Shown: in pieces, positions 4,664 to 41,192 of the stretch
Numbering within the stretch: position 1 is the first letter of the stretch
How the letters are laid out: every line of letters begins with the position of its first letter
Sequence record: NC_042046.1
Source: Escherichia phage C119
DNA: 47,319 nucleotides
Reading direction: 5' to 3' (one strand)
Translations under genes and position numbers: made by a program
The notes under the pieces: generated by a model
Databases searched by the model: none
What the model was told of the DNA's origin: nothing
Seen by the model: the letters and a program-made list of their open reading frames with translations, nothing else

Positions 4664-5065
4664 ATGAATGAAGAAGTAATTGCGTACATGCGCACGCTTT
4701 ACCCGCCTCTTAAGAGTCAGCCTGATGATGTTCTTAACGCATGGATTGAGGTAGCCAAGCTATTCATCTGCTTAGACAAGTTTGGTGACAAGCAGGTTCA
4801 GGCACTGGCATTCTACACTCTTCACTTGCTTAGCCAGGATATTGCACTTAAGACTGAGAATGATTCAAGCCAGACATCATCTGAGCGGGTTAAGTCCTAC
4901 TCACTTTCAGGCGAGTACACGATTAGCTACGATACAAGCACTGCCGCAGCTAGCTCATCAAACCTTGAGGAATCCTCATGGGGTAAGCTTTACATTGATT
5001 TGATGCGTCGCAAGGTTGGCCGCTGGGGCTTGATTACCTCTGGTGGGTCGAGGTGCTGCCGATGA
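4664..5065 (+). CDS. Head-tail connector / adaptor protein (133 aa)
   Basis: Position between capsid and tail genes; GGAGA RBS; stop overlaps the next start (ATGA). Confidence 0.5.
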   Translation: MNEEVIAYMRTLYPPLKSQPDDVLNAWIEVAKLFICLDKFGDKQVQALAFYTLHLLSQDIALKTENDSSQTSSERVKSYSLSGEYTISYDTSTAAASSSNLEESSWGKLYIDLMRRKVGRWGLITSGGSRCCR

Positions 5066-10697: not shown

Positions 10698-10728
10698 TAA
10701 ATGGGGCTTCGGCCCCTAAGGATTTTAA

Positions 10729-11079
10729 ATGGCATTAGATACTTTTACATGGTGTACCCAAATTCAAGGTGGATCAGCAAACTTTACTAACGCGAATAAC
10801 GTTAGGGTTGTTAGCTTTGGCAATGGCTACGAGCAGCGCGGAACCGGAGGTTACAGGACCAATAAGCGCACCTACAACATGACCTACACCAACACCAGCT
10901 GGAAGGAAGTGTTGGACTTCTGCTTTGCTCACATCATCACCCCGTTCGCATGGACAACTCCGCAGGGTGAGCTTAAGCTGTTTGTTGTAGCTCAGGACAG
11001 TATCAGCGTCACACCAAACACCAAGGACGTGCAGACTGTATCAATGCAGTTTGTAGAAGTTTTCACATCTATGCAGTAA
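10729..11079 (+). CDS. Minor tail protein (lambda gpM-like)
   Basis: 116 aa ORF immediately after the tape measure gene, TAAGGA RBS; first gene of the M-L-K-I-J run. Confidence 0.65.
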   Translation: MALDTFTWCTQIQGGSANFTNANNVRVVSFGNGYEQRGTGGYRTNKRTYNMTYTNTSWKEVLDFCFAHIITPFAWTTPQGELKLFVVAQDSISVTPNTKDVQTVSMQFVEVFTSMQ

Positions 11080-11151
11080 ATAGCACTAATTGCTAAACAG
11101 AAATACCAAGGAAGGTTTACAATTAAAAAACTTAAACAAGAGGTGATTGAT

Positions 11152-11367
11152 ATGAAAATTAATTTGCTTTGCACAAATGCTGAAGTTGGTGTCTTTGATT
11201 TAAATGTTGGTCAAACTTATGTGGCATACTTCAATGATGATTATGGTCATTATGAACTTTCTGATGAAGGTTTTTCTTATGAGTTAAGCGAGGTTAGAGG
11301 TGCTCCTTTGACTTTCTACTGTAAATCTTTTAGTGGTGGATTGGTGACATTCATTAAAGTAAACTAA
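11152..11367 (+). CDS. Hypothetical small protein (72 aa) inserted between tail genes M and L
   Basis: ATG 11152 with AAGAGG RBS; preceded by cassette motif aaatagcactaattgctaaa (11078-11097) and followed by its own hairpin terminator (11368-11389); AT-rich relative to neighbours. Confidence 0.6.
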   Translation: MKINLLCTNAEVGVFDLNVGQTYVAYFNDDYGHYELSDEGFSYELSEVRGAPLTFYCKSFSGGLVTFIKVN

Positions 11368-11389
11368 GGCCCTACGGGGTCTTTTTATT
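11368..11389 (+). terminator. Rho-independent terminator after the inserted small gene
   Basis: ggccc-UACG-gggtc hairpin followed by tttttatt. Confidence 0.6.
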
Positions 11390-11400
11390 GGAGAAATATT

Positions 11401-12165
11401 ATGGCTACGCCATTGAGCACTAAGTTTGAGAATCAATTACAAAGCTTGTTCCCTGGTGAGGTTGTCACGTTGATTGAGGTTGACGGAGGAAAGTTTGGTG
11501 CACCAGTTTACCGATTTCATGGGGAGAATATCAGCTATACCCCAGAAGAAATCATGATGGCGCAATCAACAGGCCAGCCACTACCAGCAAAGACAATTAC
11601 CTTCCGTGGGCAAGAGTACGGAGCAAGGCCTTTCGGTATTCAGGGGATCAATATGACCTCTGATGGCAAGGCAAATAAGGTGACTCTAGTCGTATCCAAC
11701 GTAGACCAGAATATATCTGCGCTTATCCGCACTTACAATGGACTTGTTCAGGCCAAAGTTACTATCTGGATCACCCTCCGCGAGAATATTAACGAAGATG
11801 GCACCATTGCTGATGGGGATTACCGCAAGCTGGTTTACTTCATTGAGCGACCTAAGCAGGTTGATTACAATACAGCCTCATTTGAACTAACTAGCCCAAT
11901 GGATATGGATGGTATTTACATTCCAGCGCGACTTGTTCAGTCTGTTTGTTATTGGGCACAGCGAGGGCTTTACCGATCAGGTAATGGATGTAACTACATG
12001 GGTACTCGATATTTCGATAAGGACAACGCGCCTGTGACTGACCCATCGCAAGACTTCTGTGCCGGAACGGTTCGTGCGTGCAAGCTAAGGTTCGGAGAAA
12101 ATAATCAGTTAGACTTTGGTGGTTGCGCTGCTGCAAGCCTGCAAGCTAAAGCCAACCAAAACTAA
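11401..12165 (+). CDS. Minor tail protein L (lambda gpL-like)
   Basis: 254 aa; C-terminal Cys cluster (CYWAQ...GNGCNY...FCAGTVRACK...GGCAAAS) as in Fe-S-binding gpL-type proteins; position between M and K. Confidence 0.75.
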   Translation: MATPLSTKFENQLQSLFPGEVVTLIEVDGGKFGAPVYRFHGENISYTPEEIMMAQSTGQPLPAKTITFRGQEYGARPFGIQGINMTSDGKANKVTLVVSNVDQNISALIRTYNGLVQAKVTIWITLRENINEDGTIADGDYRKLVYFIERPKQVDYNTASFELTSPMDMDGIYIPARLVQSVCYWAQRGLYRSGNGCNYMGTRYFDKDNAPVTDPSQDFCAGTVRACKLRFGENNQLDFGGCAAASLQAKANQN

Positions 12166-12174
12166 GGAGAGGTA

Positions 12175-12921
12175 ATGTTAACGCCTAAAGTTAAGATCGA
12201 AATATTTCGCCACGCCAACGAGGTTTACCCGCAAGAATCTTGCGGGGTTGTAACTCAGAAGGGGATGGCGCAGAAGTATCACAGGATTACCAACGTATCC
12301 AAAACACCAGAGCAATCATTCATTCTCGACCCAATGGAATTCATGGAGATTTCGGACAATGAAAGCGTTGTTTATGTTGTACATTCACATACTGGTGATG
12401 GCGCTACTACTAGGCCAAGCGCAGCTGATATTTGCAGCTGCAATGAGTGCGATCTGCCTTATGTTATTGTTTCTATACCTGAAGGGGACTTGCGGATTAT
12501 TCAGCCAGAAAAGATGCCGCTTGCTGGTCGCCCATGGGGTCTTGGCAGCTTCGACTGCTGGGGTTTGGTTATGGAATTTCACAAGCTACACGGTGTTAAG
12601 CTTAACGATTATCGCGTAGATTATCAGTGGTGGACCAATGAATACCCTGACAATATCTACGATGATAATTGGGAGTTAGAAGGGTTCGAATTAGTCAGAA
12701 GCAATGATATTCCAATTGGCTCAATGGTTATGATGCAGATTCAGAGCGAGAAGACCAACCACGCCGCCATATACATTGGTGACAATAAAATCCTACACCA
12801 TTTATATGGTAAGATGAGTAAGGTTGATTTGTACGGCGATTACTATCGTGAGCGGACTGTACGAATCGTAAGGCATAAAGATTTACCGGAGGATGCTGGT
12901 TATGACCCAGAACGTGATTGA
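12175..12921 (+). CDS. Tail assembly protein K (JAB/MPN plus NlpC/P60 domains)
   Basis: JAMM-like motif HSHTGDGATTRPSAADICSC and NlpC/P60-like GSFDCWGLV...H; AAGGAGAGG RBS. Confidence 0.8.
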   Translation: MLTPKVKIEIFRHANEVYPQESCGVVTQKGMAQKYHRITNVSKTPEQSFILDPMEFMEISDNESVVYVVHSHTGDGATTRPSAADICSCNECDLPYVIVSIPEGDLRIIQPEKMPLAGRPWGLGSFDCWGLVMEFHKLHGVKLNDYRVDYQWWTNEYPDNIYDDNWELEGFELVRSNDIPIGSMVMMQIQSEKTNHAAIYIGDNKILHHLYGKMSKVDLYGDYYRERTVRIVRHKDLPEDAGYDPERD

Positions 12922-16965: not shown

Positions 16966-17937
16966 TTAGTAGAAGTTGGGAATAAATGGAAGTGCCATTG
17001 ATATGTTTGTATCAAATGGGAATTGCGCGCCAGTTTGAGTTGAATAGTTACCTATAACAGTGCCTGGGACGGCTCTAACTGAACCTCCAGACATGCAAAC
17101 ACCCTTGTATCGTAAGTTATTATATCCACCAGTGACTCTAGTTGTCGCTCCGCATCTAAGTATTGGGAAGAACCCACCATTCACCGACTGGTAACCATTA
17201 TTAATCTGCATAAATCCACTTAGAACAAATGGCCTCCTGACGCTAGAGAAAACTATCTTCCCAGCGCTGTTTGATATCGTTAAACCCGGACCAGCTACTG
17301 GAGGTGTATTATTGAAAATAACTAACTGAACGTAAGTACTTGCAGCAACATCATCAATCCCATTGTACGTTATATCCCTACACCATATCGTACTACCATC
17401 ACTTTCAAGTGATACGTTTTGGTTATCCCATTTACCAAAAGGAATGCCGCCAACTGGCAATGATGCAGAGCCATTAACCTGGATGCCACCAACCCAAGCA
17501 GCAGTCATTAATCTGGAATTACTTGATATCGCTGTAAAGTCAGTCGAGTTCTCAACAAGGACACCGGGGCTTGATTGTGATGATGCTGGTAAAATCTCAA
17601 AGCACTGACCGCCAAACTGCAATATGCGACCATTAGCGCCGTTAAAGTTACTTAATGTAATCCTTCCAACCCCATCATTAACCTTCGAGAACCCATTCAT
17701 GTAATAAACTTCTGGTATAACATCATATGCATCAACATAAACAGCCTGAGTTGGCAGGCAGAATGCTGTTGAGCCAGGAGTCATAGTCAGACCGAAATCC
17801 CATGATGATGCTGGTGAGCTTAACCCGCTAGTGTTTATTGAACCAGTCACGGCTGGAACTCTCAAGCCAGCTGTAATTTCCATTGCTGGCCTTCCGTCAT
17901 TCAAATCTATCAAGATACCTTGAGGCATTATTTCCAC
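16966..17937 (-). CDS. Putative receptor-binding protein / tail fibre (323 aa)
   Basis: Minus-strand ORF convergent with the gpJ-like gene, Gly/Ser/Asn/Thr-rich beta-type composition, immediately downstream of a lipoprotein gene (Llp-pb5-like arrangement). Confidence 0.5.
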
Positions 17938-18173
17938 TCCTTTGAGCCGTGATCTGCAACTGAGCCGCCGTAGCCTCCACCAACCTTTGACTCAATGCCA
18001 GCATAACGAATATCAACCTCTCCAGCTGCAACAATAACACCACCTTTCCACTTAGCTACGCAAACATCACCCGCCTGAGTCGCACACCATCCGTCAGGGC
18101 GCGGACCAGAAGAACAACCTACCGTCATGATTGCTGCTGCTGCGATGATTGCTGATTTGATGAAGTTAGTCAT
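17928..18173 (-). CDS. Small lipoprotein, candidate superinfection-exclusion factor (Llp/Cor-like)
   Basis: Minus-strand ATG at 18173 with AAGGAA RBS; N-terminus [23 protein letters not shown] has a signal peptide plus lipobox; mature part about 60 aa with two further Cys; overlaps the start of the receptor-binding gene. Confidence 0.6.
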
Positions 18174-18356
18174 TTTGTATTCCTTAGTCAGTATGTTTCG
18201 TTTCGATGGAGTAACTATAGCAAAGGCTTCTGCTGTAGTCTTTAGCAAATCGTGCTATTTTATATACGCGTAACCGATGTAACTCGATGTATACAATCTC
18301 ATCCGCTGAAAATTGTATACGCTTTTTACGCGAAGATACGCATTAGTTACATTTAT

Positions 18357-29079: not shown

Positions 29080-29137
29080 AGAGATTTCGCAAGGATGCGA
29101 TATAGTTACTTCATCGAAACGAAGAGAGAGAAACAAA
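29061..29137 (+). promoter_or_regulatory. Conserved gene-boundary cassette (reference copy)
   Basis: aaatagcacgaattgctaaa - 12 nt - ggatgcgatatagttacttcatcgaaacgaagagagag then ATG; dyad TAGCA/TGCTA; -10-like TATAGT. Confidence 0.6.
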
Positions 29138-30437: not shown

Positions 30438-30505
30438 CACTTTTTGTTAAAACACATCGCCATGGATGGCGTATAGTGTGTTCATCGAAACGAGAGACGA
30501 TTCAG

Positions 30506-32741: not shown

Positions 32742-32915
32742 ATGACTAAATTATTCTGCGTTAGCAACAAATCAAAATCACTGCCTTTCACTGTAAACAA
32801 CCCTTACAGTGGTGAGTACCAGGGGGATGGTAATTACAAGATTTATGGAGATGACATGACTTGGATCTTCACCCCGATTGATGGAGAATTGGTGGAATTC
32901 ATTATCGCAGACTAA
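32742..32915 (+). CDS. Hypothetical protein (57 aa)
   Basis: ATG 32742; strong terminator follows at 32941-32970. Confidence 0.45.
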   Translation: MTKLFCVSNKSKSLPFTVNNPYSGEYQGDGNYKIYGDDMTWIFTPIDGELVEFIIAD

Positions 32916-37428: not shown

Positions 37429-37502
37429 CTTCGTGATTCTTTAGTTTCGTTTCGATGAGATGAATATACAATAAAAGCCCCGAAGGGCTTTAGCAATTCG
37501 TG

Positions 37503-37655
37503 CTATTTCTTTGCTGCTTTTGCAATTGCCTTCTGGACGATGTTGAAGCTCTCAATCAAATCTTCTTTGAAGTAGTCACCAACAGGCCAACCCTTACCGC
37601 TGTACTTGGCTATGGTTTCTAGATCGTAATAGTTCAAGTCAGATGGCTTTAGCAT
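37503..37655 (-). CDS. Hypothetical protein (50 aa)
   Basis: ATG 37655 adjacent to the upstream stop (TAA-ATG); stop TAG is the TAG of a minus-strand cassette motif (37489-37507). Confidence 0.4.
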   Translation of the reverse strand: MLKPSDLNYYDLETIAKYSGKGWPVGDYFKEDLIESFNIVQKAIAKAAKK

Positions 37656-41120: not shown

Positions 41121-41192
41121 CACAAATTGCTAAACATCCATCGCAAGGATGCGTTACCATTACTTTATCGAAATTAGACGAGGAAAGATTAA

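Follow-up and report, generated by a model that had tools for sequence, protein, structure and literature searches.

A probable moron-like promoter–gene cassette between tail genes M and L of a T1-like Escherichia phage

Lambdoid morons, of which gene 15 in the HK97 tail operon is an example, are pieces of extra DNA between normally adjacent genes, marked by a deviant GC content, a promoter of their own and horizontal spread (PMC3594210). In the PeSL cassettes of T4-type phages a repeated promoter motif lies beside small non-essential open reading frames (ORFs), and the insertion, deletion and replacement of these ORFs distinguish close relatives (Arbiol et al. 2010, PMC2839356). Here we analyse a small gene, ORF71 (11152–11367, plus strand), in a stretch of 47,319 nt from Escherichia phage C119 (NC_042046.1), which we refer to throughout as the window. 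As a preliminary description of the window had proposed, ORF71 is inserted between the tail genes M and L; the insert is foreign in GC content and its presence varies among near-identical phages. In our view it is probably a moron-like promoter–gene cassette of T1-like phages that encodes an accessory, non-structural product.

The ORF71 cassette has in common with these morons its position between normally adjacent genes, its deviant GC content and its horizontal spread, and a promoter of its own is predicted. Classical morons, however, are found in temperate phages and are expressed from a repressed prophage (PMC3594210), whereas the phage that carries ORF71 is virulent and the prophage part of the definition does not apply to it. 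It differs further in that its predicted promoter is a repeat of the phage family rather than a generic promoter, and in that it has no terminator of its own at the M–L site, where the hairpin is resident and was not imported. The likeness to PeSLs covers both the promoter motif beside a small ORF and the way in which the ORFs distinguish close relatives: there are at least 12 copies of the repeat per genome, two alternative ORFs as well as empty states at one site, and one ORF family at three sites. In some copies a hairpin stands directly ahead of the repeat or in the spacer behind it. PeSLs nevertheless belong to another phage family and use another motif. They combine a strong σ70 promoter with a terminator stem-loop and cluster in hyperplastic regions, whereas the ORF71 cassette lies inside a conserved structural operon; and PeSLs form excised mini-circles, whereas for the ORF71 cassette recombination between repeats is inferred.

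GenBank already contains the gene, wrongly named, and the repeat has been published. The new elements are the fold link to Gp54 of phage Bas11, the exact anatomy of the insertion, and evidence for a joint movement of repeat promoter and gene to three sites. Several relatives that lyse O157:H7 came from phage-therapy or biocontrol studies, in which an unexplained accessory gene is worth knowing about.

The M–L insertion site

Around the insert, the window shares about 99.8% identity with Escherichia phage phiKP26 (KC579452), a T1-like siphovirus of the genus Rogunavirus (Drexlerviridae, Rogunavirinae). Drexlerviridae are virulent phages, and neither an integrase nor a repressor appears in the phiKP26 annotation; lysogenic conversion, which the preliminary description had raised as a possible function while noting that lysogeny genes are missing, is inapplicable to a virulent member of this family. 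The tail-tip genes around the insert are of the lambda type: M (PF05939), L (PF05100), K (JAB and NlpC/P60) and I (PF06805). Both flanks had been identified correctly. Gene M (10729–11079, plus strand; E 1.5e-18 to its Pfam family) encodes a lambda gpM-like minor tail protein, and is called 'minor tail protein' in phiKP26 and Rogue1; gene L (11401–12165, plus strand; E 1.3e-45) encodes a lambda gpL-like protein.

The insert is bounded by two plus-strand copies of the direct repeat AGTAAA. The left copy (11075–11080) includes the M stop codon TAA (11077–11079), and the right copy (11358–11363) lies within the last codons of ORF71; empty sites read CAGTAAA/CTAAG at the corresponding junction. 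The inserted cassette therefore occupies 283 bp of the plus strand (11081–11363), comprising the promoter unit, the ribosome-binding site (RBS) and ORF71 through its final sense codon, and this segment is lacking in AHP42, JK06, AKS96, phiEB49 and others. The insertion point is TAAA^CTAAG, between the M stop codon and the M–L hairpin. The GC content of the insert is 32.2%, and that at third codon positions (GC3) of ORF71 is 23.9%, against 47.0 and 56.9%, respectively, for M and 46.7 and 45.7%, respectively, for L; the composition of the insert is thus foreign to the flanking tail genes. We hold the insertion, its boundaries and its cassette nature with high confidence.

Immediately downstream, and overlapping the ORF71 stop codon, is an intrinsic terminator or attenuator hairpin, AAGGCCC-UACG-GGGUCUU followed by a U-run (11366–11386, plus strand; ΔG −10.8 kcal/mol), which was located by a terminator scan. 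The preliminary description had noted this hairpin terminator and assigned it to the ORF; the structure is present but it is not the ORF's own. The insert-free junction of AHP42 reads CAGTAAA-CTAAGACCCTACGGGGTCTTTTTTATTGGAGAAAC-ATG, and the arrangement TAA ACTAAG-hairpin-TTTTTTATTGGAGAAAT-ATG is found in AHP42, in phiEB49 of another genus, and in two members of another subfamily, the Braunvirinae (IME253 and EC3a). The empty sites of AHP42, JK06, AKS96, the Opt phages, phiEB49, IME253 and EC3a all have the form TAA-ACTAAG-hairpin-ATTGGAGAAAT, with a T-run behind the hairpin in phiEB49, IME253 and EC3a, and Bas11 likewise has a terminator at the M–L position. Because the junction with its hairpin occurs in phages without the insert, the hairpin is an old, resident M–L terminator that the cassette has borrowed. 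The converse idea, that the hairpin is part of the cassette and the empty sites are deletion scars, was prompted by the likeness of a cassette terminator at another locus (described below), and was rejected since the junction recurs in other genera and another subfamily. A transposon or miniature inverted-repeat transposable element was also rejected: no terminal inverted repeats were found around the insert, only the direct repeat of 4–6 bp. An RNA gene was discarded as well, the Rfam search yielding merely a chance snoRNA match (E 0.85), as were two overlapping minus-strand ORFs (10992–11174 and 11284–11436), which have neither homologues nor signals.

We surveyed the M–L junction with the insert removed from the query, taking the best 60 of 258 matching records. 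In most of these 60 the junction is empty (span 778–797 bp), and in AHP42, JK06, AKS96, phiEB49, IME253, EC3a and Bas11 the two genes are parted by the hairpin of about 40 bp alone, which agrees with the earlier statement that M and L are normally adjacent. Within the Rogunavirinae the site is polymorphic: ORF71 is present in phiKP26, UDF157lw, BECP10 and Rogue1, and the site is empty in AHP42, JK06, AKS96, the Opt phages, phiEB49, Sd1 and e4/1c. The synteny comparison suggested earlier thus supports the reading as an insert. AHP24, AHS24 and Sf12 carry a second cassette in the same place, an unrelated 64-aa ORF (PHROG 24631) behind a repeat promoter (1457–1765 of the AHP24 locus L007; about 655–990 of the Sf12 locus L012). 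Its products, AHP24 gp20, AHS24 gp21 and Sf12 gp45, are similar in size to ORF71 but unrelated to it in protein sequence; the insertion point, the left-edge repeat promoter and the resident terminator are as for ORF71, while the promoter differs in retaining a TCATCGAGACGA leader. Both cassettes are inserted exactly at TAAA^CTAAG, with TAGCAC at the start and TAAA at the end. Since two unrelated cassettes occupy one exact point, the M–L junction of the Rogunavirinae is a precise and re-used hot spot for insertion or replacement. In a further state, the 43 kb record of phiJLA23 has flanks that are 99.9% identical and keeps the repeat (TAGCACTAATTGCTAAACAGA; about 1581–1610 of locus L003), while the −10 hexamer, the ORF and the resident hairpin are absent from the record.

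Two remote homologues of ORF71, P0006 (49% identity) and P0007 (41%), both in PHROG 29402, are encoded at other sites. P0006 (locus L015) is flanked by a terminator and the terS promoter; the phage that encodes it is 92% identical to DTL and SU57; these two phages lack about 334 bp here, indicating a clean insertion of repeat, TATAAT, RBS, ORF and terminator. P0007 (locus L016) lies between the portal and head protease genes of another Drexlerviridae type, with CGCACGAATTGCTAAAA-N-TATCAT upstream and a terminator downstream, and in its relatives 2725-N35 and phiA2-1 the portal gene adjoins the protease gene. Unlike the M–L cassette, both of these bring their own terminator. The homology across four contexts spans the repeat, the 5′ untranslated region (UTR) with the RBS, and the ORF, from which we conclude that promoter and gene moved as one unit. 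The flanking repeats of 4–6 bp, the joint travel of promoter, UTR and ORF, and the three insertion sites suggest that the cassette probably spread by illegitimate or short-homology recombination. We note as a separate observation that the L015 cassette terminator TAAATCAAGCCCCTTAATTGGGGCTTTTTT (385–432) closely resembles the resident M–L terminator of the Braunvirinae, TAAACTAAGCCCCATTAGGGGCTTTTTTT (about 350–390 of loci L021 and L022); the cassette before terS may have been copied from an M–L site along with its terminator.

The repeat promoter unit

The sequence upstream of ORF71 contains a plus-strand copy of the T1-like 21-nt direct repeat aaATAGCACnnnTTGnTAAAA (11078–11098), here reading AAATAGCACTAATTGCTAAAC, with TAGCAC at 11081–11086 and TTGCTA at 11090–11095. 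Its first 20 nt (11078–11097) had been described as an upstream cassette motif. The motif does recur, with 11 matches in the window at up to three mismatches against 0.01 expected, but it is merely the 5′ part of a longer promoter unit. A looser pattern finds at least 12 genuine copies in the window, and among these the copy at 11081 is, as had been stated, the only one in the head/tail module. Over the aligned copies the unit consists of ATAGCAC-N3-TTG(C/T)TAAA, 22 nt, TAnnnT (mostly TATAGT), in many copies a TCATCGAAACGA leader, and finally an RBS and an ATG. The TAnnnT hexamer is found at +36 to +38 from TAGCAC in 12 of 12 copies, and the ATG at +71 to +84.

In the ORF71 copy, which is on the same strand as the gene, the −10-like hexamer is TACAAT (11118–11123, plus strand), at +37 from the T of TAGCAC, and the ATG is at +71. 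A σ70 scan couples this hexamer with TAAACA at a spacing of 18 nt, and we infer a transcription start near 11130. The Shine–Dalgarno sequence GAGGTG (11140–11145, plus strand) stands 6 nt before the ATG, bearing out the good RBS noted previously, and the stretch GAGGTGATTG..ATG, which covers the 5′ UTR and RBS, is common to the window and to the remote locus L016. The repeat folds only weakly (−3.7 kcal/mol). In phage TLS the direct repeat sits about 76 nt upstream of start codons and is oriented with transcription; it is also mentioned for T1, Rtp and Rogue1, with a stoperator, an enhancer site and an UP-like element left as candidate roles (PMC11447400). The ORF71 copy has the properties of that T1/TLS repeat, in that it matches the consensus, is intergenic, points the way transcription runs and is near a start codon. 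To the published description the window adds that every copy stands in a fixed register with a −10-like hexamer and that the repeat travels with a gene. Given this fixed register and the joint movement to three sites, we favour a portable promoter over a stoperator, which bears on the still open role of the T1/TLS repeat. Our literature search found no transcription-start mapping for Drexlerviridae.

Bas11 gene 54, the gene for the structural relative discussed below, is preceded by ATAGCACTTTTTGTTAAA-N22-TATCAT. Zhang et al. (2024) placed Gp54-FLAG under its native promoter on pBR322 and saw expression in MG1655 cells without infection; escape mutations directly upstream of gene 54 lowered its expression (PMC11578894). 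By analogy, this promoter activity may carry over to the ORF71 copy. Its unit being in exact register with 11 others, we consider it likely that the ORF71 copy is a functional promoter, and the earlier suggestion that the gene has a promoter of its own most probably stands. Other copies in the window stand before genes for a lipoprotein, for recombination and for helicases, and before small-gene clusters; because these genes are non-structural, ORF71 is probably co-regulated with non-structural genes.

Several further features of the units were noted. A conserved transcribed leader, (T)CATCGAAACGA, follows directly behind the −10 hexamer in most copies (18257, minus strand; 29064; 30435; 32280; 37505, minus strand; and others); the AHP24 cassette retains it, while the ORF71 copy is without it. 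Within the 22 nt that separate the repeat from the −10 hexamer there is often a short inverted repeat around (A/T)GGA, as at 11105–11116, 29088–29099, 30458–30471 and 41142–41153 in the window and at about 4956–4967 in locus L008. The arms vary (CGCA/TGCG, CGCCA/TGGCG, GCCA/TGGC, CTC/GAG, ACC/GGT) in a manner that, judged without statistics, looks like covariation. The copy at 37505 (minus strand) has a terminator-like GCCCTTCGGGGC hairpin with a T-run at about 37465–37490, between the repeat and the −10 hexamer, forming a PeSL-like composite of promoter and stem-loop. The repeat promoter at 18257 precedes a gene for a PF24052 lipoprotein (17931–18173, minus strand) that is likely to be of the exclusion type. 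For kp_40, its counterpart in phiKP26, GenBank gives a start (equivalent to 18248) that overlaps the repeat and probably lies too far upstream; a start that fits the unit is the ATG near 18173, which has an RBS before it.

The ORF71 family and its predicted fold

ORF71 begins with ATG and encodes a protein of 71 aa, 8.0 kDa and pI 4.4 (PHROG 29402). The ORF had been recognized correctly, although its length had been given as 72 aa by counting the stop codon. Read by eye, the sequence has no obvious signal peptide, lipobox or hydrophobic membrane segment. The Pfam search returned just DUF7244 at E 0.1, far short of the cut-off; the PHROGs search found only the protein's own family, which has no assigned function, and a PDB sequence search found nothing. 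The DUF7244 lead was dropped, as the true member of that family in the window is a 57-aa ORF upstream of the holin gene (32742–32915, plus strand; E 7e-29) without BLASTP similarity to ORF71. The ORF71 family occurs in four of 50,697 phage records and makes up five clusters in a set of 5.8 billion proteins; two further relatives of 71 aa came from a profile search against 1.84 billion representatives, and the family amounts to seven proteins in the databases searched. IMG/VR contained phiKP26 itself alone, and the JGI metagenomes gave no match. Profile matches in three large proteins (P0008–P0010; 970–2501 aa, five to six stretches each) were discarded as spurious, because their near-identical internal repeats match one β-hairpin and inflate the scores.

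Comparison of divergent pairs gives ratios of non-synonymous to synonymous substitution (dN/dS) of 0.20–0.30 for ORF71, against 0.03 for M and L, at synonymous distances (dS) of 0.6–0.9; the constraint on ORF71 is about ten times weaker than that on its neighbours. For the pair formed by the window and locus L008 the dS is 0.62 for ORF71, 0.65 for M and 0.70 for L, and this equality indicates that ORF71 diverged together with its flanks. The closest pair of family members differs by six non-synonymous changes and one synonymous change, which is not significant. Both the length and the core motifs NDD, DxGFxY and SFS are conserved down to 41% identity and in three genomic contexts. On these sequence comparisons, ORF71 is a real gene under purifying selection.

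The phiKP26 record names the gene (kp_34) 'tailspike sialidase', and the name has spread to three phage records (phiKP26, UDF157lw and BECP10). Pfam, PDB-sequence and literature searches gave no support for a sialidase, nothing was found in the literature on a 'tailspike sialidase', and the predicted fold is a six-stranded barrel. A chain of 71 aa is too small for an endosialidase domain. The annotation is misleading and is corrected here.

The AlphaFold2 model of ORF71, with a mean confidence score (pLDDT) of 89.9, is a six-stranded all-β domain in which a long loop joins strand 1 to strand 2. An independent model of P0006, based on a wider alignment, has a pLDDT of 94.3, with five of five models at or above 89.7. 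Gp54 of Bas11 (PDB entry 9axb; PF25180, 'Phage antiviral trigger protein Gp54') is likewise a six-stranded β-barrel with a prominent β1–β2 loop, and we consider it very likely, on the basis of the models, that ORF71 has a Gp54-type fold. The earlier statement that the product has no recognizable motif thus holds for its sequence but not for its predicted fold. In BFVD several small uncharacterized proteins, mostly from T1-like phages, have predicted structures that resemble ORF71 at query-normalized TM-scores of 0.65–0.77; they include A0A2S1GSG2 (IME347), A0A7D5FSB9 (SU57), A0A192YAG3 (NBD2), A0A7S6U4K9 (phage 066039) and G5DML0 (F20). These predictions hint that the Gp54-type barrel may be widespread among Drexlerviridae accessory genes.

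Gp54 is non-essential, and it directly binds and activates the toxin–antitoxin defence CapRel(SJ46); mutations of gene 54 that let Bas11 escape CapRel are of the nonsense, missense, promoter and deletion types, and the authors suggest that Gp54 might inhibit another defence system (PMC11578894). ORF71 also appears to be dispensable on comparative evidence, since viable close relatives do without it and AHP24 and Sf12 have another ORF in its place. The two differ in their setting, gene 54 lying in a leftward small-gene cluster of Bas11 and ORF71 in the structural operon, and in breadth, with 215 phage records for the Gp54 family against four for ORF71. Moreover, CapRel activation is known for the Bas11 allele of Gp54 only.

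Role of ORF71 and alternative explanations

In the explanation that we propose, a portable promoter–gene cassette landed between the M stop codon and the resident M–L terminator. The segment 11081–11151 would act as the family-wide repeat promoter (ATAGCAC-N3-TTGCTAAA, 22 nt, TACAAT, RBS), at which host RNA polymerase would start near 11130 to give an mRNA of about 250 nt that ends leakily at the pre-existing hairpin. The predicted product is a dispensable, acidic, probably cytoplasmic barrel of 8 kDa that is not part of the virion structure. By analogy with Gp54, it may bind a host protein in phage–host conflict, as an anti-defence or takeover factor, and immune proteins such as CapRel could in turn sense a protein of this type. 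A conflict gene that is sensed becomes a liability, which would explain the gain, swap, loss and possible inactivation seen among near-identical phages. Fitting such a gene are the scattered occurrence, the exchange of alleles at a single site, the constraint roughly tenfold weaker than on the adjoining tail genes and the possible natural knock-outs. We propose an anti-defence or trigger-type role tentatively, as a possibility suggested by this analogy. More doubtful still is a wider conjecture, in which ORF71 and Gp54 would belong to one broad superfamily of six-stranded barrel anti-defence effectors of T1-like phages, diverged beyond any sequence similarity, shuffled as ATAGCAC-promoter units into head and tail operons among other places, and sensed by CapRel-type sensors; the M–L site would then be an arms-race locus and the repeat a mobilizing module for recombination and expression.

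A number of observations weigh against the proposed explanation. The ORF71 copy of the promoter unit is without the leader common to most copies, its −10 hexamer is TACAAT rather than TATAGT, and TTGCTA is 22 nt away from the hexamer. The Rogue1 ORF is frameshifted by a change from T5 to T6 in a homopolymer (at about 1780 of locus L002), and a metagenome contig (locus L010) is frameshifted by the loss of 1 nt at about 530–545; both may be sequencing errors, the Rogue1 data being from 454 sequencing. At the phiJLA23 junction the retained repeat is followed by an N and then by the RBS of L, reflecting either a deletion or an assembly artefact. As to the fold, only four sequences went into the first ORF71 prediction, which gave two poor models out of five. 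Neither BLASTP nor tblastn detects similarity between ORF71 and Gp54, a comparison of the two family alignments by hhalign has a probability of 0.08%, and ORF71 does not match PF25180 at E values up to 10, whereas Gp54 itself scores 116 bits. Because BLASTP, tblastn and hhalign are all negative, we do not file ORF71 in PF25180, of which no member is encoded in the window. Convergence of a small barrel may underlie the likeness. Finally, Gp54 itself has no assigned function, and CapRel does not respond to close homologues of Gp54 (PMC11578894), which makes the functional analogy a weak one.

Among the alternatives, the one that survives best, although we consider it unlikely, is that ORF71 is mostly a passenger or decaying remnant, with the extra promoter being kept to boost L-K-I-J or the cassette persisting by spreading without benefit from its protein. 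The M–L hairpin must be leaky because it also stands between M and L in insert-free phages, and transcription from a promoter in front of it would reach the tail genes downstream. Of the seven known M–L copies, two (Rogue1 and L010) look frameshifted, and the tiny family, the weak constraint relative to M and L and the substitutions in the closest pair point the same way. A decaying ORF would not, however, be expected to show a dN/dS of 0.2–0.3 over a dS of 0.6–0.9, nor a length and motifs conserved in three contexts, and the predicted fold is compact and confident. The cassettes at L015 and L016 carry a terminator, and the promoter there does not obviously serve downstream genes. In phiJLA23 the repeat is retained but not the −10 hexamer, so the promoter is not the part that was kept.

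Superinfection exclusion or another host-protecting function, which the preliminary description had also put forward, is in our estimation very unlikely. The moron-like position in a tail operon behind a predicted promoter of its own would suit it, as morons of the HK97 gene 15 type lie in tail operons and some morons encode exclusion functions (PMC3594210). Virulent phages, too, can encode exclusion proteins, and T1-like phages carry a lipoprotein of the Cor/Llp type. Against this function, the present family is virulent and hence without a lysogen to convert. Typical entry-blocking proteins are membrane or periplasmic, whereas ORF71 is acidic, is modelled as a soluble barrel and has no obvious membrane signals. 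Its sole structural relative, Gp54, is cytoplasmic and is sensed by a cytoplasmic toxin–antitoxin sensor, and the window already has the PF24052 lipoprotein gene behind another repeat promoter.

A tail-associated role for ORF71, as a minor virion component or assembly helper, is suggested by its position between M and L, its shared orientation with the tail genes, the 'tailspike sialidase' label and a 'putative minor capsid protein' at rank 6 among its BFVD neighbours, but we regard it as the least credible of the alternatives, since phages with approximately 88–96% identical H-M-L-K-I genes lack ORF71 or have an unrelated ORF instead, homologues lie outside tail modules, the composition is foreign, the promoter is of the class that serves replication, recombination and small-gene clusters, and the published virion proteomics of Rogue1 and the AHP phages list no such protein, though gels would miss a species of 8 kDa.

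Two minor observations concern the neighbouring tail genes. A GGGGC-UUCG-GCCCC tetraloop hairpin without a clear plus-strand U-run lies between the tape-measure gene and M (10703–10716), and the tail operon is punctuated by such stable tetraloop hairpins (UUCG, UACG). The L–K junction is variable too: the gap in the window is 9 nt (12165–12175), HNH features are listed under the Sf12 and phiEB49 matches, and AHP42 has an HNH endonuclease gene with an annotated promoter at this position (2455–2943 of locus L004).

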